NCBI GenBank assembly: GCA_963851445.1
Contig: CAWKPH010000001.1
Location: 159,943 to 223,942 of the forward strand
DNA from: an uncultured bacterium
GTDB taxonomy: Bacteria; Patescibacteriota; Minisyncoccia; Phycocordibacterales; Phycocordibacteraceae
Length of the DNA: 64,000 bases
Direction of reading: 5' to 3'
A model generated the notes under the pieces. The model was given only the letters and a program-made list of their open reading frames with translations, ran no database searches and was not told where the DNA came from. Shown here piece by piece: positions 9,420 through 51,170 of the stretch. The translations under genes and the position numbers were made by a program. Within the stretch, counting starts at the first letter, position 1, and each line of letters begins with the position of its first letter.

Positions 9420-9510
9420 GGAGACGTGGCTGAGTGGTCGAAAGTACCTCACTGCTAACGAGGCAGGGGTTAATAGCCCCTCGAGGGTTCGAATCCCTCC
9501 GTCTCCGCCA
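9420..9510 (+). tRNA. tRNA-Ser (anticodon GCU), class II with long variable arm, CCA encoded
   Basis: Acceptor GGAGACG/CGTCTCC, anticodon loop CUGCUAA, long variable arm, T-arm GAGGGTTCGAATCCCTC, 3' GCCA. Confidence 0.85.
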
Positions 9511-22115: not shown

Positions 22116-22189
22116 CCATCCTTAGCTCAGTTGGTTAGAGCATCGAGCTTATACCTCGAGGGTCCCTGGTTCGAGTCCAGGAGGATGGA
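22116..22189 (+). tRNA. tRNA with anticodon UAU (would read AUA; tRNA-Ile-like), no encoded CCA
   Basis: Acceptor CCATCCT/AGGATGG, D-arm GCTCAGTTGGTTAGAGC, anticodon stem TCGAG/CTCGA with loop CTTATAC, T-arm CCTGGTTCGAGTCCAGG. Confidence 0.7.
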
Positions 22190-22233
22190 CCGATTATGCT
22201 ATGCTTGGGTGCATATAATAAAGTATAGAGATT

Positions 22234-25064: not shown

Positions 25065-25476
25065 GGGGGTGACTGGTTTTGACGGTCTGCTCTTTGAAAG
25101 ACGTGCGACGCGATGGAAGCTTGTTGACCATCTAAATCTCGCAAGCACCTAAACTTGCTAACAATTCTGTTGCAAGCGCAAAGCTTTCACCTTTCCAGAT
25201 GAAAGATTTTGCGTTCGCGTACGTAGGAGCTCGAGCGTAAGCTCGCTTCGCCTATGCGACGTTCACTAACCCCGGGTTCCTATAGCCGGATTAGTGGGCG
25301 GAATCTTCTATAGGATCGGTAGTCGTGTGCCCACACGTACTGTCTAAACTACGGGCGTAGATGTACAGGGTTTCGTTTCCGTTTTTACCTGTACATTGAA
25401 ACTTCAATTGAAACTATGCGTCGTAGATTCGCTTTCAAAGCCGGATTCGGACGGGAGTTCAACCTCCCCACCTCCA
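25065..25476 (+). ncRNA. ssrA: tmRNA (SsrA)
   Basis: 5' GGGGGUGACUGGUUUUGACGG and 3' GGACGGGAGUUCAACCUCCCCACCUCCA-A-CCG form the tRNA-Ala-like acceptor with the G3:U70 wobble pair. Tag ORF starts about 92 nt in (GCU AAC ...) and stops with UAA at 25238-25240. Lies directly after smpB. Confidence 0.75.
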
Positions 25477-25483
25477 CCGATAT

Positions 25484-36371: not shown

Positions 36372-36764
36372 TTACCAGACTTCAAAAAGTGTTTCGCCTC
36401 CTGCACGAACCTTGCGTGCTTCTTTATCAGAAAGAATTCCTTTTGGCGTTGAAAGAATACGAGAGCCTTGTCCGTTTTTTACGGTGTGTGCATCACGAGC
36501 TCCTACATAGAGCCTACGACCTGGTTTCGAAATTCTCTTCACATCATGAATCTTGTGCTTACCATTTGCGTCATATGAAAGAGTTACCTCCATGACGTGC
36601 GCATCCTTTTTTGACATGGCAACATTTTCGACAAATCCAAGCTCCTTGAGTTTATTTGCAATAGCTTCAATATGCTTGGAATAAGGAACAACCACGGTCT
36701 GGTTACCGATTGCGCCTGCATTTTTAAGGCGAATTATGAAATCTCCAACGCGATCAGTTACCAT
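36372..36764 (-). CDS. rpsH: 30S ribosomal protein S8
   Basis: MVTDRVGDFIIRLKNA... Confidence 0.9.
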   Translation of the reverse strand: MVTDRVGDFIIRLKNAGAIGNQTVVVPYSKHIEAIANKLKELGFVENVAMSKKDAHVMEVTLSYDANGKHKIHDVKRISKPGRRLYVGARDAHTVKNGQGSRILSTPKGILSDKEARKVRAGGETLFEVW

Positions 36765-36768
36765 ACAA

Positions 36769-37038
36769 TTACCAGGAAGCCTTCTTTACCCCAGGGACTT
36801 TTCCTTCACGTGCAAGCTCACGAAATACGATACGCGAAACGCCAAAAGCCCTGAGGTATGCACGACTACGACCAGAAACGGCACAGCGATTTTTGATGCG
36901 AGATGGCGAGGAGTTGCGGGGAAGCTTTTGTAGACCCTCATAGTCTCCGGCAGCTTTAAGAGCCGCGCGCTTAACCGCGTATTTTTCGGAGAGTTTTATC
37001 TTCTTGCGATTGCGCGCAAGTTGTGAGGTTTTAGCCAT
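36769..37038 (-). CDS. rpsN: 30S ribosomal protein S14
   Basis: [13 protein letters not shown]...[11 protein letters not shown]... Confidence 0.85.
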
Positions 37039-37068
37039 ACTAAAAAGCGCTCCGAAGAGCTTGCCTCT

Positions 37069-37097
37069 ACCATATCAGGTAAGAAATACGCTGTCAA
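37069..37097 (-). promoter_or_regulatory. Candidate sigma70-type promoter for rpsN-...-secY
   Basis: Minus strand: TTGACA (37092-37097), 17-nt spacer, TATGGT (37069-37074), about 30 nt upstream of the rpsN ATG. Confidence 0.4.
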
Positions 37098-37107
37098 ACA
37101 AAAGAAA

Positions 37108-37137
37108 AGGCGCTACCGGCTATTGCCAGTGGCGCCT
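37108..37137 (-). terminator. Hairpin terminator for the inserted gene 37120-37680
   Basis: AGGCGCTAC...GTGGCGCCT stem enclosing the stop codon. On the minus strand it is followed by TTTTCTTTTGTTT. Confidence 0.45.
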
Positions 37138-37680
37138 GAAAAAGGAATCCCAGAGAGAGAGGGCTTGGGGGCTCACGACGAGAGCGAATACGCAGCCCTT
37201 ACTCCAGTATCCGAGTGCAAGATGTCCCGTGCTATTGCCAATGACTGGGTGGTACTTGATTTTGCCAGTCTTCACGCGTAAGTAGGACGTTTTGAGGGCG
37301 CAAATTCCGGGCCGATCCGCAGCTTGTTGGAATTGTCCTGCAAATGAGAGGAGTTCCTTCTCATCAGCAGGCCTCCATGTCCTGTAAACCGAAGCGCCCA
37401 TGCTGACAGGATCCATCATTGGCAGAAGCGCGACGCGGATCACTGCGCTGCCCGTTTTACGAGGCAGCTCTTCGTAGTCTCCCGGAATATAGTCTGGATC
37501 CATTGCCACGTTGGGGGCAATCTCGTGACCTGACTTACTGTAATCCACGAGAACCAGGTACTCGTGGGGACTATGTCGCCGGTCACGACGATAGGACTGA
37601 TGTTCACATCTTGTCAGCTCGAGGAGTGGGGCCACTATCACAAAAACTAGCAAGATCGAGGCGAGAATTCGATTTCTCAT
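37120..37680 (-). CDS. Secreted/membrane-anchored hypothetical protein inserted in the spc operon
   Basis: Signal peptide/TM (ILASILLVFVIVAPLL). Has a GHLALGYWSKGCV segment (possible His/Cys catalytic pair). 186 aa. Confidence 0.5.
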   Translation of the reverse strand: MRNRILASILLVFVIVAPLLELTRCEHQSYRRDRRHSPHEYLVLVDYSKSGHEIAPNVAMDPDYIPGDYEELPRKTGSAVIRVALLPMMDPVSMGASVYRTWRPADEKELLSFAGQFQQAADRPGICALKTSYLRVKTGKIKYHPVIGNSTGHLALGYWSKGCVFALVVSPQALSLWDSFFRRHWQ

Positions 37681-37850
37681 TATTTGCCCTTCCCTATAGG
37701 GGTTTTGTTCGTTCTAAACGCATAATACTGTCAATTCTAAAATTGTCAAAATAGCTTTCCGCCCAATTCTCCGCGTGATAGAAGACGTTAGAACCTATTT
37801 ATGAAAATAAATCGAAGCACGTATAAGACTGATTGTCTGGATTAGTTGAT

Positions 37851-38405
37851 CTAACGATTTTTCCCTCTAAAGAATGAAGTAGGGAAGAATCTAACAATTG
37901 GAGCAACAAGAGCTGCTGCATCACGTTTCGCATGTCCTTCATGATCTTTGTGCACGATCGGATTCTTTTCATGCGCCAGTTCCTCAACTGTTGTATGTGC
38001 AGCTGCTTCATAGTCTAAAAGGGCCTTTTTTGCTCTTTCCCATTCAGCCACTGCTGATTGATATTTTCCATTTCCGGCTCTAAGTGGACTATCCAGAATA
38101 CTTGTGTCCCCCCCAACTCTAAGCCCTTGTTGCAGTTCCAATGCTCTTCGAGCATCCTCTTCTACTTTGACGAGCATTTCATGCGTTTCAAGAGTTCGCT
38201 CGGCAGATGCATCTTTCAATCTGGTTAAAATAGTTTCGGCAGCTGCGCGATCCTCCGCGGCTATAGATTTTGCTTCGAAGTCGAGTAGGCCAAGTTTCTT
38301 TATTTTTTCTTCTTCAGCGGCTATACCTGCGCTCTCTGAAGACTGATTAGCCTGTTCGCTGGAATTACCTTCTGCTGATTTTTTTGTAGGGTCTTCGAGT
38401 GACAT
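37851..38405 (-). CDS. Acidic coiled-coil hypothetical protein
   Basis: 184 aa, Glu/Ala-rich predicted helices. No known motif. Confidence 0.45.
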   Translation of the reverse strand: MSLEDPTKKSAEGNSSEQANQSSESAGIAAEEEKIKKLGLLDFEAKSIAAEDRAAAETILTRLKDASAERTLETHEMLVKVEEDARRALELQQGLRVGGDTSILDSPLRAGNGKYQSAVAEWERAKKALLDYEAAAHTTVEELAHEKNPIVHKDHEGHAKRDAAALVAPIVRFFPTSFFRGKNR

Positions 38406-38429
38406 AAATAAATTTTAGTCTCGGATTTC

Positions 38430-38830
38430 GCTAATAGATATGGCATTCTTCACATCCCTAATCCTACCATGCAAGGCATTAGAATTAGAAAAGGTAGAGC
38501 AAAGGACAAGTTCGGAGCACTTTTAAATCGTCCTGTGATAACGGGCTCCGTCTCGTGTATGAGGTTAGGATCTGCTTTGTATGAAACAGCGTGGGGCCGG
38601 CACACGCTTGGTGTACCGGCCCCAGAGATGAGATGACCCCTAGGTCAAGTCCAGGACGCCGCGGCGTCCATGAAAATCAACTTCGGCTACAAAGCAGGCT
38701 GTGCACTAAGTCCTATTCCTATCGGACCCGGATTTTGACCTCGAAAAGTCTAATCCACCTGTTCTGCTCTCACCTCTAAGGAACCCGCTAAAGACAAGTG
38801 TATCAGATTCTTAAGCGTATGGTCAAATTT
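38430..38830 (-). other. Non-coding GC-hairpin-rich region (candidate structured RNA)
   Basis: Perfect or near-perfect hairpins GGGGCCGGCACAC-GCTTG-GTGTACCGGCCCC (38593-38623) and palindrome GGACGCCGCGGCGTCC. Long-range GGTCAA...TTGACC pairing. No convincing ORF. Confidence 0.25.
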
Positions 38831-38918
38831 TCTTCCCAATGTCGTCTCCGACATTCTGGGGGTATAAAAGAAGCCTTCGATCACTTGGACCAAAGACTTC
38901 AACAATTCTTACTGGGAG

Positions 38919-39176
38919 TTACCCCGCGACTACGCTAAGAAAACCTGTTTGTGTAGGCAGTGGCAGATCGCGCATAAAGCTTAAGGCTTTGGGCAATCTT
39001 TCGATTATGCCGCTGCTAACCCTCAAACTTACCGAGGTATTAATAATATTTCTCGCAACTTTCGTCGCCTCAATATCATCTTCAGCAGAAAAACCGTGAG
39101 TGGTTTCGTCCCAGAAAACATCATCACCCTTACCGGACAGATAAGGTGCTCGATACACCAAACGATAACGCCCCAT
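38919..39176 (-). CDS. Possible small hydrophilic protein
   Basis: 85-aa ORF from ATG (MGRYRLVYRAPYLSGKGDDVFWDETTHG...) with a G-rich stretch upstream. Weak evidence. Confidence 0.25.
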   Translation of the reverse strand: MGRYRLVYRAPYLSGKGDDVFWDETTHGFSAEDDIEATKVARNIINTSVSLRVSSGIIERLPKALSFMRDLPLPTQTGFLSVVAG

Positions 39177-39312
39177 ACTAAAGCCCCCCAATTTATTTAT
39201 GCTAGAGCCCTCTCCCTAGACACTTCTATTAACACGATAGTCTTATTTATCAAGTCGGTCAATGTTCAATAAATACAAACGCGTTCGTAGAGTACGTTGT
39301 AGAGAATTTGTT

Positions 39313-39843
39313 TTACGCAGTGCGGAGTGGAATACCAAGGTGGCGATAAAATGCTTCTGCTTCCTTTACAGTCTTTGCGGTGGTCACAAGTGTAATTGCG
39401 ATGCCGAAGACATCTTTAAGATCCTCTTCGCTCGCTTCAGGAAAAATTGTGTGCTCGCGGATGCCAAGCGTCATATTACCCATCTCATCAATAGCACCTA
39501 GCGAAAGGCCTCGGAAGTCACGTGTACGTGGGAGTGCGATGTGTACGAGCTTGTCGAGGAATTCATACATGCGGGTGCCGCGAAGTGTCACCTGGTAGCC
39601 TATGATGTCGCCTTCACGCATCTTGAATTGTGCAATCGATTGCTTTGAAGGACGTGGAGCAGCTTTTTGTCCGGTGATGCGCGCAAGTCGCTCTTCAACC
39701 ATCGCTTTGCGGTTCTTGTCTGCCTTCCCAACACCCGTTGATACCACGATCTTGAGGAGCTTTGGAGATTGCATGACATTGGTATAGCCAAACTCCTTTG
39801 AGAGAGTCTTGAATGCGTCGTTCTGTCGGTCTTTGGTAAGCAT
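39313..39843 (-). CDS. rplE: 50S ribosomal protein L5
   Basis: Conserved L5 motifs (…LGIREHTIFPE…), 176 aa. Confidence 0.9.
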   Translation of the reverse strand: MLTKDRQNDAFKTLSKEFGYTNVMQSPKLLKIVVSTGVGKADKNRKAMVEERLARITGQKAAPRPSKQSIAQFKMREGDIIGYQVTLRGTRMYEFLDKLVHIALPRTRDFRGLSLGAIDEMGNMTLGIREHTIFPEASEEDLKDVFGIAITLVTTAKTVKEAEAFYRHLGIPLRTA

Positions 39844-43159: not shown

Positions 43160-43993
43160 ATGTCGCGGGTGAGGTACAATGACTCTATGAAGCACACGGT
43201 ACGGGATCTCATCTTTGTCATCATTCTGCTCCTTCTTATGGTGGGTGGTTTAGTTTGGTACATTTTCTATAAGCCACACGCTGCCCTTCCTGTAACGGCC
43301 ACCTCTACAAGCCCTTTTTCGGCAGCTACCACGCCAAGCACCTCGCAAGGCCTCCCTCAGCACATCATCAATAACTCCCAGTATTACGCCATCGACATGC
43401 AATACCCTTCATCAACGCCTCTAGCACAAACGGCCGGAGCGAGTGCTGACGCGGCGGCGGTGGCAGTAATGCAGTCGTTCAGCCAGAATAGTGTCGACAC
43501 CTTCATCAAGGATGGCGATTTTGCCGATATGACTCCGCAAGTGCTTAAGGACATGGGTGGGCAGCAAGAAACGATGAGTGACTCGTATCAGTTGTATACC
43601 TCACCTACAACCATTTCCTACGTATTCACCGTTACCCAGGATACGGGAGGGGCACATCCTAACAGCTACTACCAAACCTTCACCTTTGACTCGAAGACGG
43701 GGCAACAGCTCATGCTCTCTGATCTCTTCATGCCTGGTAGCGACTATCTCTCTACCCTTAGCTCACTTTCACGGTCGGCACTCCTTTCGCAGGAGGGTGC
43801 CAATGCTCAATCTGAATTGATTGACCAAGGTACGCAGGCTAGCAGCACTAGTTTTGCAAACTTCGCTCTCGACGGTGCTAATTTTGATATTTTCTTTGCA
43901 CCTTACCAAGTAGCTTCCTATGCGCTTGGCCCGCAGACAGTACAAATCCCACTTACTCAGCTTACGAGCATTCTCAATACGGAGTATCAATAA
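43160..43993 (+). CDS. Membrane-anchored DUF4163/DUF3298 (RsiV/PdaC C-terminal-like) domain protein
   Basis: N-terminal TM ([21 protein letters not shown]). [19 protein letters not shown] matches the DUF3298 GGAHP signature. 277 aa. Opposite strand to the flanking ribosomal genes. Confidence 0.6.
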
Positions 43994-44116
43994 GAAAGTG
44001 GAAGCGACTCGAATGAATAGGCGCCCCATCTATTAAACAGAGAGACTGTTGCACAGCCTCTGTAAGGAAGCCGAATATCTGGTACTCTAAGGTCAGGTTT
44101 CAGGAGGGTCTTTGTT

Positions 44117-44758
44117 ATGGGCATTGTTCAAATAGCGCTCGAAAAGGCGAGGCACGCAAGCAAGGAAAGGGTACGGGCTGAGGCGAACGAAAAAGCTGCC
44201 TGGGACGCACTGCGGGCTAGACTCAGGGCTGGCGGAACAACGGGGGATTATCTTTGGGACTTCCTTTTCGTTGGATATGGGCCACGCAGCTCCCAAGCCG
44301 AAGTCGATGAACACTACAAGCGCTACCTTGCAGTCAACGAAAGGCTAAAGGGACAGGCGGGCCAGCTGGTTCTCTACTTTCGTTACGAGAAACGCCTTGA
44401 GTCCTGCCACTTCACGCACAGCAGCTATAGAACTGACAACTGCTGGTATCTGGCTGTGCTCAGTGGTGAGCAGCTCATTTGTCGGCTTCAGCCAGATATG
44501 AAGATGGGCTGCTATCTTCCCGTGAAGTGTTACTGCAACCAGCTGCATCAGCCCATCATCACCAAAGGACGCCTTCGCGAAATACCGATCAGAGGTTGGT
44601 TCGATGAATCATCCCTTGTTATAGGGGACGAGGCAGTTATCGCAAGGCTCAAGCAAGACGGCCTCTGGGATATTACGCGGGGGCCGGGTTTTAGGGCCTT
44701 CCTCGATGAGTTGGGACATTTCGACTTGACTCCCGAGCCAGAAGAAGAGACGGCGTAG
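44117..44758 (+). CDS. Orphan cytoplasmic hypothetical protein (locally higher GC)
   Basis: 213 aa. GGAGGG RBS 8 nt upstream. Cys-rich middle (CHFTHSSYRTDNCWY...CYLPVKCYCNQLHQ). About 55% GC, above the neighbours. Confidence 0.5.
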   Translation: MGIVQIALEKARHASKERVRAEANEKAAWDALRARLRAGGTTGDYLWDFLFVGYGPRSSQAEVDEHYKRYLAVNERLKGQAGQLVLYFRYEKRLESCHFTHSSYRTDNCWYLAVLSGEQLICRLQPDMKMGCYLPVKCYCNQLHQPIITKGRLREIPIRGWFDESSLVIGDEAVIARLKQDGLWDITRGPGFRAFLDELGHFDLTPEPEEETA

Positions 44759-44936
44759 GACGTGCGTCCAAGGGTGCTTTGCAAATGCGAGGCACTCTTT
44801 TTCTTTTCTCCCTGTTCTCGATATTCAACGTTCTGCTTCCAAGTAGGCTAATGAAGGACACGCAAAAGTCCCAAGCTCCAGGACCTTATTACGTACTCAA
44901 CATCATAGAGGTAGGAACGAATGCTAGAATCTCTAC

Positions 44937-45314
44937 ATGGATTCATCATTGAACTCCCGCAAAACGCACCCCATATTAAAACCAATAGCCCTTGTTTGTT
45001 TATCTCTCCATGGCTTGGTACTTGTTGGAGTAGTAGTACTCTGTTTGTTTAATATAGTACTGATATTACTTGCAGCATTTTTCACAGTGGGATTGGCACT
45101 TCTCATAATACTGGGGATCATATTTGTTATTGGCTACAGCTTCGTCATAAGTTTAAAGTATTATAAGCGCTCGAATTTCTCTAAATCGATCCTTGTGTCG
45201 GTATTAGTAATATTTGCAGTCGCTGAAGCTGGGTTCTATACCATTAGACAAATAGGTCTGCCGTCTCTAGAGCAACTTATACCCGGGCCGGGCAGTTGGA
45301 TGAAAGTTGGGTGA
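44937..45314 (+). CDS. Small polytopic membrane protein
   Basis: 125 aa with three or four predicted TM helices. AT-rich. Confidence 0.5.
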   Translation: MDSSLNSRKTHPILKPIALVCLSLHGLVLVGVVVLCLFNIVLILLAAFFTVGLALLIILGIIFVIGYSFVISLKYYKRSNFSKSILVSVLVIFAVAEAGFYTIRQIGLPSLEQLIPGPGSWMKVG

Positions 45315-48085: not shown

Positions 48086-48299
48086 AAAAAGTAAAATGCG
48101 CTCAATGGCGCAAGATTTCAGTAGAAATCCTTACCATTGGTCCGGCCGTCAGCCGTACGTAGCGTTTCAGGTACTCTACACTAGTCTTTTAAAGGACGCA
48201 ACGATGAGTCCGACGTTAGCTTAATTTGTATAAAATAGTTCGGCCCTCGCCCAGCCGAAGCTGAGCGAGGAACCGTGTTGATGTTAGCCCATTTAAGGG

Positions 48300-48560
48300 C
48301 AACGATCGCCGCTGGTCAGGTGATGACGACGTCCGCCGCCGCGCCGCTGACCGAGCCGACGGCGCGCATGGCGCCGACCTCCTGGTGATCCGCGACGGTG
48401 AGATGGCCCTTGGCGGCGGCGATGTTCAGGATTTGCCGGGAATGCGGCGACGGGTGAAACCCGTGCCGGGCTGGGTTTTGGTGCATTATCATCCTCCAGA
48501 GGAATGGTCGCCAGCGGGTTGCCGACGACCTTCGTAGTCTATACCCACTTTTTTCCAAAT
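48300..48560. other. 260-bp GC-rich (about 68%) segment without an intact ORF; probable foreign or degraded coding fragment
   Basis: Sharp GC step relative to about 50% flanks. Protein-like fragments appear in two frames (...GADLLVIRDGEMALGGGDVQDLPG... plus strand, ...ILNIAAAKGHLTVADHQEVGAMRAVG... minus strand) but no start-to-stop gene. Confidence 0.4.
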
Positions 48561-49084
48561 CAAGAAGTTATGCACTGTTAGATAAATGGATTCCAACCTA
48601 ATAACAGGTTGTAGATTTTGACTTGAGAATGGGTGCTAAGCTATGAATAGGTCACGCATTGGCTGACCTTGTAATGGAGAGATTGCCATGATGAAGTTTT
48701 TTACCCTTCGGGGAAAGACCGCAGCCTTGGAGACACATTTCATCGAGGGGAGGTGATCCTTCATATCTCGTAAGCCGCACCGGCGCACTTACGCACCCGC
48801 AGGCCCGATGCATCCGCGTCGGGCCTAATGATTTTCATGCTATATTCCTTAAGTCAGCACAGGTCTGACAGAAAGGAATTGTTCCCATGATCGATGGCAT
48901 CACCCGTGAAGCCCCGTGGCCTACGGACGGCCTATGGTCACCGGATGGCGGCTCGGAGATCTGAAGTCTAGGGACCCAGACTCAATTTTCAAGAGCTACC
49001 CATGGCGCTCCAGACTATCGGAACGCCATTTTAATTTAGTGGATGTATTTATTTAAATGAATGACCCTGAGCACGAAGCCTGGG

Positions 49085-49411
49085 TCATTTAGTCCTGAGG
49101 GAACTTGTTTGCAAAGCGTAATGCCTGAGCCCAAGAGACTTTGCTCGCTCTCCTGGAAGCGGTTTTTTAGCAAACCGACCGCCTGTGTGACCATTCGGTT
49201 CACGCCAAACTTCACGCCATTTTCCTGTTCGCTTATCTACCCAACCGTGGCGCCACTTAGCCATGTGTTTACTGATCTTGAGAGGTGTATTGTCCTCTTC
49301 ATAAACATAGCCAGCAAAGAGAGCTCGTTGGGCATTGTGAACTCTATCGACCTCTTCTCTGGCTCCTGGTGGTAGACGCCAACCAGGAGGCTTAGAACCC
49401 GGTGGTCGCAT
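49085..49411 (-). CDS. Orphan small basic protein with a perfect Shine-Dalgarno sequence; weak resemblance to tyrosine-recombinase N-terminal arm-binding domains
   Basis: ATG at 49409-49411, preceded 5 nt upstream by GAGGAGGAG. 108 aa. KRTGKWREVWREPNGHTGGRFAKK segment resembles integrase N-terminal [K/R]RG..W.V.W..P.G motifs. Identification is low-confidence. Confidence 0.45.
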   Translation of the reverse strand: MRPPGSKPPGWRLPPGAREEVDRVHNAQRALFAGYVYEEDNTPLKISKHMAKWRHGWVDKRTGKWREVWREPNGHTGGRFAKKPLPGERAKSLGLRHYALQTSSLRTK

Positions 49412-49465
49412 ATCACTCCTCCTCAAAAGATCAGAGTTTCAGAATACTCTTCAGAGAGAACAAAA

Positions 49466-49495
49466 GCAAAACCGCTCGTGCACGAGCGGTTTTGC
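49466..49495. terminator. Bidirectional terminator (perfect 15-bp palindrome) after rpsJ
   Basis: GCAAAACCGCTCGTG|CACGAGCGGTTTTGC with A-tract and T-tract flanks. Confidence 0.6.
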
Positions 49496-49517
49496 TTTTG
49501 TTGATTTATTCTTCGAG

Positions 49518-49929
49518 CTACACCATCTTCACATCAATCGTAACGCCTGAAGGAAGATTGAGATTCGTGAGAGCCTCAATAACCTTTGCGTGATGGCGAA
49601 AGAATGTCGATGAGACGCTTGTGGATGCGCATTTCGAACTGTTCGCGTGAGTCCTTGTGGATGAATGTCGAACGGTTCACGGTCCAGCGCTTTATCTCAG
49701 TTGGAAGCGGAACGGGACCGACAATTTTCGCATCGAAGCGATTAGCGGTATCCATGATCTGCTTCACCGAGAGATCAAGAATCTTGTGCTCATAGGCGCG
49801 TACGCGAATGCGAAGCTTTGGTTCTGCGCAGGCTCAGCTTCTTTTTTCGAAGCTCTTTTGGCAGGCGTTTAGCGGCTGCTTTTTTACCGCAGCTTTCGCT
49901 ACAGTCTTTTTTGCGGTTGAGTTTGCCAT
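49518..49929 (-). pseudogene. rpsJ: 30S ribosomal protein S10, interrupted by at least three 1-nt indels
   Basis: Lys/Ala-rich N-extension from ATG 49927-49929 (MANSTAKKTVAKAAVKKQPLN...). Core ...AQNQ(K)[39 protein letters not shown]...[11 protein letters not shown] is recovered only by switching frames at an A-run (ccaaag). C-terminal [23 protein letters not shown] is in yet another frame. Confidence 0.75.
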
Positions 49930-49965: not shown

Positions 49966-51170
49966 TTATGCGACGATCTTGGTTACAACACCAGCACCGA
50001 CGGTCTTGCCGCCTTCACGAACTGCGAAGCGAGTGTTGTCCTCAAGTGCGATAGGAGCAATGAGCTTTACCTTGAAGGTAACAGTGTCGCCTGGCATAAC
50101 CATTTCCTTTCCTTCAGGAAGAGTAACTTCGCCGGTCACGTCCGTCGTGCGGATGTAGAACTGAGGCTTGTACCCAGAGAAGAATGGAGTGTGACGACCG
50201 CCTTCGTCCTTAGTGAGAATGTATACTTCAGCTTCGAATTCAGTGTGAGGAGTCACTGAACCAGTCTTTGCAAGAACCTGACCGCGGTGTACATCTTCTT
50301 TCTTCGTACCGCGGAGAAGGATACCAGCGTTGTCGCCAGCCTGACCTTCCTGGAGCTGCTTGTTGAACATTTCGATACCAGTAACAGTCGTCTTTGCGGT
50401 TGGCTGAATACCGACGATTTCGACTTCTTCACCAACCTTGACGATACCGCGCTCGATACGGCCGGTGACAACCGTTCCGCGACCTTCAATAGAGAAGATG
50501 TCTTCGATAGGCATAAGGAATGGCTTGTCGAGTCTCGCGCTCTGGGTTGGGAAGTAGGTGTCCATTGTGTCAACGAGTTCCTTAACCTTTAGAGCCCAAG
50601 GATCGTCAGCTGAAGTTAGCTTCAAGAGCCTTAAGACCTGAGCCGCGGATAACTGGCGTAGCTGCGCCATCAAAGCCCTGCTTGGTGAGAAGTTCACGGA
50701 TTTCCTCTTCAACGAGGTCGACCATGTCCTGGTCATCAACCATGTCTACCTTGTTAAGGAAGACGATGAGTCTTAGGCACACCAACTTGCTTTGCAAGAA
50801 GGATGTGCTCACGAGTCTGAGGCATCGCGCCGTCAGTCGCAGCAACCACGAGCACTGCGCCGTCCATCTGAGCGGCACCAGTAATCATGTTCTTGATGTA
50901 GTCGGCGTGGCCTGGAGCATCAATGTGCGCGTAGTGACGATTCGGCGTCTCGTACTCCGAGTGGTGGAGGGCGATAGTAATACCACGAGCCTTTTCTTCA
51001 GGCGCGTTGTCGATATTATCGACCTTCTCGGCGCGGGCCTTGTAGCCAGCATCCTTGTTGAGATTGAGGACGTTGAGGATAGCAGCGGTGAGCGTGGTCT
51101 TGCCATGGTCAACGTGACCGATGGTGCCTACGTTCATGTGCGGCTTGCTGCGATCGAATGCTTCTGCCAT
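49966..51170 (-). pseudogene. tuf: Elongation factor Tu, split over three reading frames (at least two frameshifts)
   Basis: G-domain [27 protein letters not shown] (50754-51170). Middle ...[27 protein letters not shown]... in a second frame (50606-50878). Domains II-III ...[27 protein letters not shown]... in a third (49966-50739). Confidence 0.85.

Follow-up and report, generated by a model that had tools for sequence, protein, structure and literature searches.

A probable hotspot of variable genes between rplE and rpsN in the S10-spc cluster of a Patescibacteria clade

Introduction

In the canonical S10-spc ribosomal-protein cluster of Escherichia coli and Bacillus subtilis, rplE and rpsN, the genes for ribosomal proteins L5 and S14, are adjacent and co-transcribed. 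Here we analyze 64,000 nucleotides of DNA from an uncultured member of the Patescibacteriota (contig CAWKPH010000001.1; the whole stretch is referred to as the window), in which the gene order was checked and found unchanged (L2-S19-L22-S3-L16-L29-S17-L14-L24-L5-S14-S8-L6-L18-S5-L15-SecY) and most junctions are tight as well, but in which rplE and rpsN, which share the minus strand, are separated by 2,274 nt in the list of open reading frames (ORFs). The gap contains three small ORFs (ORF85, ORF184 and ORF186) and an ORF-free, hairpin-rich stretch. What is this gap, and what is the ORF-free DNA inside it? We give a probability of about 0.6 to the reading that the gap is an ancestral variable-gene hotspot of a Patescibacteria (Parcubacteria/Paceibacteria-type) clade and that the spacer is non-conserved junction DNA. 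The gap would then not be a one-off disruption of the cluster, and we infer that the lineage-specific genes it contains in this genome form three separate small transcription units.

Hotspots of integration or of flexible genes, situated between conserved core genes, are a general concept of comparative bacterial genomics. The locus described here shares with them its fixed core flanks, the varying orphan small ORFs between those flanks, an atypical composition, and presence or absence between close relatives. It differs in its position, within the ribosomal-protein super-operon of a genome reduced to under ~1 Mb, and in having no associated integrase, tRNA or recognisable gene of a mobile element. 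Relative to the canonical cluster, the difference at this junction is a terminator followed by a dedicated, conserved rpsN promoter, and this clade is cut not only at L5-S14 but also at L2-S19 (rplB-rpsS). A further system bears on the ORF-free stretch. In the candidate phyla radiation (CPR), 10 of 35 circular genomes needed sub-threshold searches for RNase P RNA, and such diverged RNAs fall below thresholds yet are still detected by the same models (Lui et al. 2021, PMC8172020).

The L5-S14 junction across Patescibacteria

The main evidence for a hotspot comes from the same junction in other genomes. Loci containing rplE were taken from genomes and metagenomes, including ~50 related Patescibacteria loci, and all junctions of the cluster were measured. 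The closest L5 proteins are 76-78% identical to that of the window and come from Patescibacteria/Parcubacteria/Paceibacterota metagenome-assembled genomes (MAGs). Within Patescibacteria the L5-S14 gap has a median of 632 nt, exceeds 200 nt in 25 of 35 loci and reaches a maximum of 4,124 nt. The L2-S19 gap has a median of 1,546 nt and exceeds 200 nt in 21 of 22 loci, whereas at the 14 remaining ribosomal-protein junctions every Patescibacteria locus stays at or below 200 nt. By comparison, the extrapolated L5-S14 gap of other phyla has a median of -72 nt and is wider than 200 nt in 1 of 103 loci, and their L2-S19 gap is wider than 200 nt in 0 of 71.

The contents of the L5-S14 gaps are unrelated between genomes and consist mostly of unannotated small ORFs, such that 6 of 10 sampled gap ORFs of relatives had no Pfam match. 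The cargo that could be annotated (loci L007, L016, L020 and L022) comprises a Peptidase_C39-like protein, an SPFH/Band 7 protein, a HATPase_c_3 protein of 502 aa and a class I methyltransferase. In the gaps of these loci a second ORF beside the SPFH/Band 7 protein lay outside the Pfam scan.

What remains constant across these gaps is the signal at their downstream end. Promoters were called by consensus scan (matches to the -35 and -10 hexamers, of 12), and the activities of promoters and terminators, like the roles given to transcripts below, are predictions from sequence. The flanks and the rpsN control region of the window are:

39313-39843, minus strand: rplE (ribosomal protein L5), upstream flank of the gap (Pfam Ribosomal_L5 and Ribosomal_L5_C, E=2e-29)
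36769-37038, minus strand: rpsN (ribosomal protein S14), downstream flank (Pfam Ribosomal_S14, E=1.6e-26)
37069-37097, minus strand: predicted rpsN promoter, TTGACA-17-TATGGT (10/12 matches with TG; alignment with relatives)
37049-37060, minus strand: rpsN leader hairpin, GCUC-UUCG-GAGC, containing GGAG (alignment of 14 sequences)

The rpsN promoter motif, TTGACA-N17-TGATAnnnT, is kept in 13 relatives whose gaps range from 64 to 2,666 nt. Its hexamers stand at the 16-18 nt spacing of sigma-70-type promoters and its position is kept in relatives, which supports the prediction. Because this promoter is conserved across the clade whatever the gap size, the operon break and the restart of transcription at rpsN appear to be ancestral in the clade and not a consequence of the insertion in this genome.

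The leader between this promoter and rpsN is conserved as well. An alignment of positions 37039-37068 of the window with the corresponding leaders of L003, L005-L008, L010, L011, L013, L015, L017 and L086-L088 (14 sequences) gave a hairpin of 4-5 bp, GCUCC-CC-GGAGC or, in two genomes, CGC-NNNN-GCG, followed by a U-rich tract and the AUG. In this set 93% of cells are paired and there is one compensatory change, U-A to G-C. The leader belongs to no Rfam family. Its hairpin could act as a translational operator for S14 or S8, and regulation of S14 and S8 may be wired differently in these organisms.

We regard the cutting of the S10-spc cluster at two junctions across this Patescibacteria clade as the more interesting by-product of the analysis. 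No description of such a two-site split was found in the literature searched, which is not proof of novelty. For the curation of CPR genomes, assumptions about operon and marker-gene synteny should allow for breaks at L5-S14 and L2-S19. The L5-S14 junction may be a convenient site for lineage-specific, possibly host-interaction, genes of reduced genomes.

At the second junction, the rplB-rpsS gap of the window (43160-45314) contains three plus-strand genes (277, 213 and 125 aa) lying antisense between L2 and S19. The 277-aa protein carries DUF3298 and is found at the same position in 11 relatives with 34-46% identity (loci L003-L017, L087 and L093 are involved).

Organization of the gap

In operon order, the gap runs from a promoter-like site through ORF85, a terminator, a stem-loop, a second promoter-like site, the ORF-free stretch, ORF184, a promoter, ORF186 and a terminator to the rpsN promoter. 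Its features, apart from those within the ORF-free stretch, are:

39234-39262, minus strand: promoter-like site ahead of ORF85, TTGACC-17-TATCGT (consensus scan, 9/12)
38919-39176, minus strand (TTG-extended form to 39191): ORF85, an orphan of 85-90 aa (ORF list)
38870-38900, minus strand: predicted intrinsic terminator of the rplE/ORF85 transcript, a 13-bp stem followed by UUUUA (-16.7 kcal/mol, z=-5.2)
38835-38860, minus strand: second stem-loop, just past the 38870-38900 terminator (-13.5 kcal/mol, z=-4.2)
38797-38826, minus strand: predicted second rpsN-type promoter, TTGACC-18-TACACT, with upstream CTGATA (consensus scan)
37851-38405, minus strand: ORF184, helical and mildly acidic (pI 5.6; codon score 0.12)
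37722-37749, minus strand: predicted ORF186 promoter, TTGACA-16-TATTAT, near-consensus (11/12 matches; promoter and 5' untranslated region kept in the close relative L164)
37120-37680, minus strand: ORF186, membrane-anchored or secreted (N-terminal hydrophobic helix; no family match)
37108-37137, minus strand: predicted intrinsic terminator of the insert, then UUUUCUUUU / UUUUCUUUUGUUUG (-25.4 kcal/mol, z=-3.9)

A sequence-only reading of this locus had described a two-gene insertion that breaks the spc cluster between L5 and S14, with ~0.5 kb free of ORFs upstream of the genes, a terminator belonging to the insert and a TTGACA-17-TATGGT promoter that restarts rpsN. The interruption by lineage-specific genes is borne out by the Pfam-identified flanks, both transcription signals were recovered, and both genes exist (ORF184 and ORF186). 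It had missed ORF85, however; positions 38406-38918 are indeed free of ORFs, but ORF184 and rplE are separated by 907 nt that include this third ORF.

The predicted terminators and promoters resemble known intrinsic terminators and sigma-70 promoters to different degrees. Shared with the latter are TTGACA-like and extended -10 elements at a spacing of 16-18 nt. At two gene ends a GC-rich stem-loop runs directly into a U tract: at 37108-37137, which overlaps the ORF186 stop and was also terminator-like in the regional Rfam search (E<=10), and at 38870-38900, which lies 19 nt past the ORF85 stop. The hairpins at 38592-38624, 38654-38669 and 38835-38860 differ in having no good U tract; weak U tails are also usual for the terminators that precede rpsN in relatives. 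Between the rplE stop and the promoter-like site at 39234-39262 there is no terminator hairpin (fold z=-0.5). The pattern TTGAC-N13-16-TGATA has only two matches in the 64-kb window, both on the same strand, namely the rpsN promoter and 38801-38826, and for this reason the site at 38797-38826 is a credible promoter.

These signals suggest the following order of events. The upstream ribosomal-protein transcript would continue through ORF85 and end at 38870-38900. Transcription would restart at ~38790 and run on through ORF184, and the hairpin at 38592-38624 may stop part of these transcripts. The ORF186 promoter would add further transcripts, all of which would end at 37108-37137, and the conserved rpsN promoter would then restart transcription of rpsN-rpsH-rplF.

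Comparison with a close relative

The most direct view of how the gap changes comes from L164, a 979-bp ENA contig that carries P0005, a homolog of ORF186, and that was compared with the window by blastn. The first 284 nt of L164 are the 3' end of rplE, with 82% nucleotide identity to the window and 91 of 93 residues identical. A canonical terminator follows the rplE stop in L164, and the promoter of the ORF186 homolog lies 47 nt from that stop; the same landmarks are 1,561 nt apart in the window. The L164 promoter and 5' untranslated region align with window positions 37681-37751, and 0 of 1000 shuffles scored as high. The segment missing from L164 is:

37752-39312, minus strand: ~1.5-kb segment (ORF85, spacer and ORF184) absent from L164 (blastn)

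Because L164 runs from rplE to the ORF186 homolog without ORF85, the ORF-free stretch and ORF184, the ~1.5-kb segment is a recent indel between close genomes, either an insertion here or a deletion in L164. The indel junctions were also examined for direct repeats and for a duplicated promoter, and both ideas were rejected, since the similarity there is not above that of shuffles (p=0.16-0.77). In itself this observation is ordinary, a strain- or species-level indel of orphan genes and junction DNA.

Proteins of the gap

None of ORF85, ORF184 and ORF186 matched Pfam, NCBIfam, PHROG or PADLOC. ORF85 was called as a gene on an identical, independent Logan contig, had no homologs among 5.8 billion proteins, and has a codon score of about -0.02, which is ambiguous relative to the 0.14-0.33 of confident genes. 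A phage origin of ORF184 and ORF186 was considered and rejected on the basis that they have no viral relatives and match neither PHROG nor PADLOC.

The sequence-only reading had taken ORF184 for an acidic coiled-coil protein, which is in keeping with the results: the protein is mildly acidic, and its AlphaFold model consists of two long helices, predicted at low confidence (mean predicted local distance difference test, pLDDT, 58). Among the 5.8 billion proteins ORF184 has a single homolog, P0003, with 38% identity over the full length. The surroundings of P0003 differ: on its 1-kb JGI contig (L083) it follows an unrelated gene and a terminator, and the region upstream of it is only 126 nt long and has no comparable hairpin element. 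Since a full-length homolog sits in another context, ORF184 is a real gene, either mobile or fast-evolving.

ORF186 had been read as a secreted or membrane-anchored protein with a GH...SKGCV segment that might form a His/Cys active site. The first part agrees with the AlphaFold2 single-sequence model, which has a mean pLDDT of 39 and is confident in the N-terminal hydrophobic helix only (residues 2-31, pLDDT 77-86); outside this helix the model is too poor to suggest a function. The second part found no support. A word-index search gave no homolog; one, P0005 (E=1.6e-17), came from a full HMMER scan across 1.84 billion representatives. It is 55% identical over residues 6-88, and its C-terminal half is unrelated to that of ORF186 in any frame. 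As P0005 matches the N-terminal half only, the GH...SKGCV segment is not conserved; it has no counterpart in any frame of this only homolog. ORF186 thus shows neither the profile match nor the conserved His/Cys of an L,D-transpeptidase (YkuD) or Cys/His peptidase.

The codon score of ORF186 is about -0.02. Regional GC content is 0.46-0.51, equal to the genome average, and falls to 0.39-0.41 at 37650-38100; codon scores and GC dip together fit young or foreign genes.

Folding of the ORF-free stretch

Is the ORF-free stretch more structured than expected of spacer DNA? Compared with shuffled sequences, the minus strand folds with z=-5.2 at 38406-38920 and -4.9 at 38480-38780, and the plus strand with -1.7 and -3.8, respectively. 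The signal comes from 38578-38792 (z=-4.5), with a multi-hairpin junction at 38572-38697 as its core (z=-5.45), and 38403-38580 is unremarkable (z=-0.5). The stretch is therefore moderately structured beyond chance. For scale, a scan of the whole window in 200-nt sliding windows gave a mean z of -0.33 (sd 1.5), and its strongest structure signals lie elsewhere, in the rpsJ-rplC gap and the transfer-messenger RNA (tmRNA). The structural features of the stretch are:

38578-38792, minus strand: hairpin-rich structured stretch, either a leader of ORF184 or an orphan small RNA (sRNA) (z=-4.5)
38592-38624, minus strand: 14-bp GC-rich hairpin, arms GGGGCCGGUACAC/GUGUGCCGGCCCC, possible terminator (-30 kcal/mol)
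38654-38669, minus strand: palindrome GGACGCCGCGGCGTCC (-13.5 kcal/mol)
38490-38511 (3' arm) and ~38755-38777 (5' arm), minus strand: predicted long-range helix of ~20 bp (minimum-free-energy and centroid folds)

The predicted fold is multi-branched and not rod-like. Its global form is not robust, because the partner of the 5' arm at ~38755-38777 depends on the fragment folded: this arm takes another partner when 38578-38792 is folded alone. The hairpin at 38592-38624 has a weak U tail (ACGCUGUUUCAU) and contains a U-G wobble on the minus strand that becomes a C-A mismatch on the plus strand. Both this hairpin and the palindrome, which the sequence-only reading had reported as GC-rich, are real; only their stems are GC-rich, however, and the region as a whole is at the genome average. 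The long-range pairing of GGTCAA with TTGACC that it had proposed was not upheld, as these are mere 6-mers, and a promoter-like site has one of the TTGACC copies as its -35 box.

The small ORFs of the stretch have negative, non-coding codon scores, and stops are numerous in every frame. A pseudogene or frameshifted gene, an idea considered because tuf and rpsJ are frameshifted in the assembly, was rejected on these grounds and because translated similarity to relatives is missing.

The best-supported account is that the ORF-free stretch carries a terminator, a promoter of the rpsN type and ~200 nt of hairpin-rich leader or spacer of ORF184, as its predicted signals suggest. Other genomes offer a direct comparison. 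The rplE-rpsN spacers of L009 (6526-7190) and L021 (3824-4347) have no ORF of at least 80 aa (the longest are 56 and 72 aa), match no Rfam family at either locus, and contain several perfect palindromes of 15-25 bp, a long imperfect hairpin of ~60 bp and terminator-like stacking. Because these spacers are even more hairpin-dense (z=-8.1 and -8.7), stacked hairpins seem to be typical of the junction and not the mark of a specific RNA gene.

Several observations nevertheless weigh against non-conserved junction DNA. The fold of 38578-38792 is significantly stabler than shuffles (z from -4.5 to -5.5), its major hairpin is completely paired on the operon strand alone, and a promoter-like site lies directly upstream, all of which would also fit a discrete RNA gene. 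Moreover, the indel may be read in either direction, as an insertion here or as a deletion in L164, its junctions have no significant repeats or target duplications (shuffles, p=0.16-0.77), and no closer relative carrying the spacer element was found, so covariation speaks neither for nor against it.

These observations lead to the alternative that has to be taken most seriously, namely that the stretch is a lineage-specific structured sRNA gene of ~200 nt, with its promoter at 38797-38826 and its end at 38592-38624, which arose or was acquired within the hotspot. Folding is better on the minus than on the plus strand, one wobble pair is strand-specific, the promoter would be of the conserved rpsN type, the GC-rich hairpin with its weak U tail resembles the terminators before the rpsN promoters of relatives, and the small ORFs of the stretch score as non-coding. 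However, the stretch belongs to no Rfam family and has no homolog by sequence or covariance model in any set searched, it is absent from the syntenic site of the close relative L164, its 5' arm has two alternative partners, and unrelated spacers of the same junction have an equal or higher density of hairpins. We consider such an sRNA gene unlikely, though worth keeping in view. The broader suggestion of the sequence-only reading, a structured non-coding RNA, was not substantiated: folding stability speaks for it, and against it stand the missing Rfam match and homologs and the absence of the element both from L164 and from the region upstream of P0003.

A second alternative is that the stacked palindromes are targets of recombination or insertion (attC-like, or of the repetitive extragenic palindrome (REP)/IS200 type), or the remains of a miniature inverted-repeat transposable element (MITE), and that gene cassettes are exchanged through them. 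A hotspot across the clade whose cargo is heterogeneous would be expected of such a site, and the hairpin-dense, ORF-free spacers of L009 and L021 at the same junction, the ~290-nt unit between inverted arms of ~20 nt and the 1.5-kb indel between close relatives are in keeping with it. On the other hand, the ORF list and Pfam revealed no integrase or transposase in the rplE-rpsN gap, no part of the element has a second copy in the 64 kb, and neither direct repeats nor target duplications reach significance at the indel junctions. A role as terminators accounts adequately for most of the hairpins, some of which have U tracts, and hairpins of different genomes are not similar in sequence. A MITE or attC site would combine terminal inverted repeats and target duplications with further copies or an integrase; inverted arms are predicted here and the rest was not found in the window. 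We judge this alternative improbable. A bolder version, in which rplE-rpsN (and rplB-rpsS) is a dedicated cassette-exchange site whose hairpin-dense spacers, far from being passive terminators, act as substrates of recombination or insertion, or as the birthplace of new structured RNAs and of orphan genes with expression from duplicated rpsN-type promoters within the super-operon, would be a little more improbable again.

RNA family and homolog searches

The sequence-only reading had called for covariance searches of the region, and these returned chance-level matches only. Rfam 15 on the whole window at gathering score detected only the tmRNA and two tRNAs, and at E<=3 nothing relevant and no RNase P. 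On positions 36700-39500 at E<=10 with permissive filters there were four chance matches to unrelated families (E 1.1-8.7). Eleven related loci gave no Rfam match. Likewise, nhmmer and blastn against 160 loci found no homologs of the spacer, nor did a translated search against relatives, blastn against phages and plasmids or two pattern scans of viral contigs, and a custom covariance model of the core (R1) had no match in 52 related loci. Homologs with covariation, as expected of a conserved non-coding RNA, were thus not found for the stretch. 6S RNA, signal recognition particle RNA, introns, ribozymes and riboswitches were rejected on the basis of the missing Rfam match and of the multi-branched, not rod-like, fold.

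The remaining alternative is an RNase P RNA, strongly diverged and possibly rearranged, like those reported to escape standard models in CPR. The stretch contains a string, GAGGUCAAAAUCCGGGUCCGAUAGG at ~38712-38736, that by eye and by comparison with E. coli M1 RNA we take to be like conserved region I (CR-I), and upstream of it a string, UAGAGGUGAGAGCAGAACAGGUGGAUUAG, that on the same footing we take to be CR-IV/V-like. The CR-I-like string has its only complement ~20 nt upstream, with which it makes a simple local hairpin that lacks the conserved bulged U, and the downstream ACAAAGCAGAUCCUAAC is unable to pair with it. The canonical order from CR-I to CR-V and a long-range P4 with a bulged U are thus not present, and the order of the motifs is wrong for the P4 pseudoknot. 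RNase P models had no match on 36700-39500 (2.8 kb) even at E<=10 with permissive filters, and none across the window at gathering score or E<=3. The rest of the 64-kb window gave no RNase P RNA either, which would favor the idea, but with a longest contig of 688 kb the window is at most about one tenth of the genome, so rnpB probably lies elsewhere.

The stretch shares with the diverged CPR RNase P RNAs (PMC8172020) a structured RNA of ~200-300 nt in a CPR genome that goes unrecognised at standard thresholds, as well as the short CR-I-like and CR-V-like strings; it differs in having no sub-threshold match, in a motif order incompatible with P4, and in sitting inside an indel segment missing from a close relative. 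An essential RNA would be unexpected within a 1.5-kb indel of a variable hotspot. RNase P, a "permuted" form included, was therefore rejected for want of a covariance-model signal and because P4 is impossible, in agreement with the sequence-only reading, which had itself dismissed the match for its wrong motif order; we consider it very improbable.

Other observations in the window

The rpsJ-rplC gap (48086-49575) is a third interruption of the cluster, ~1.5 kb long and without a convincing gene, codon scores being poor for its ORFs of 113 and 80 aa. The strongest structure signals of the window lie here: at 49401-49600 the minus strand reaches z=-9.6 and the plus strand -6.4, and z is -6.95 at 49001-49200. 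The gap also contains a perfect bidirectional terminator-like hairpin at ~49461-49572, with no Rfam match above chance.

Next to this gap, two essential genes are affected: rpsJ (49540-49640) has one frameshift in the assembly, near 49590 and not at a homopolymer, and tuf (50560-50800) has two frameshifts in the same direction, near 50745 and 50610, again not at homopolymers. The probable cause is error in the assembly or sequencing of this part of the MAG, and ORF calls nearby need care.

The RNA genes of the window in Rfam and ARAGORN are the tmRNA (25065-25479, plus strand, 86.5 bits), tRNA-Ser(GCU) (9420-9510, plus strand) and tRNA-Ile(UAU) (22116-22191, plus strand), and only these.

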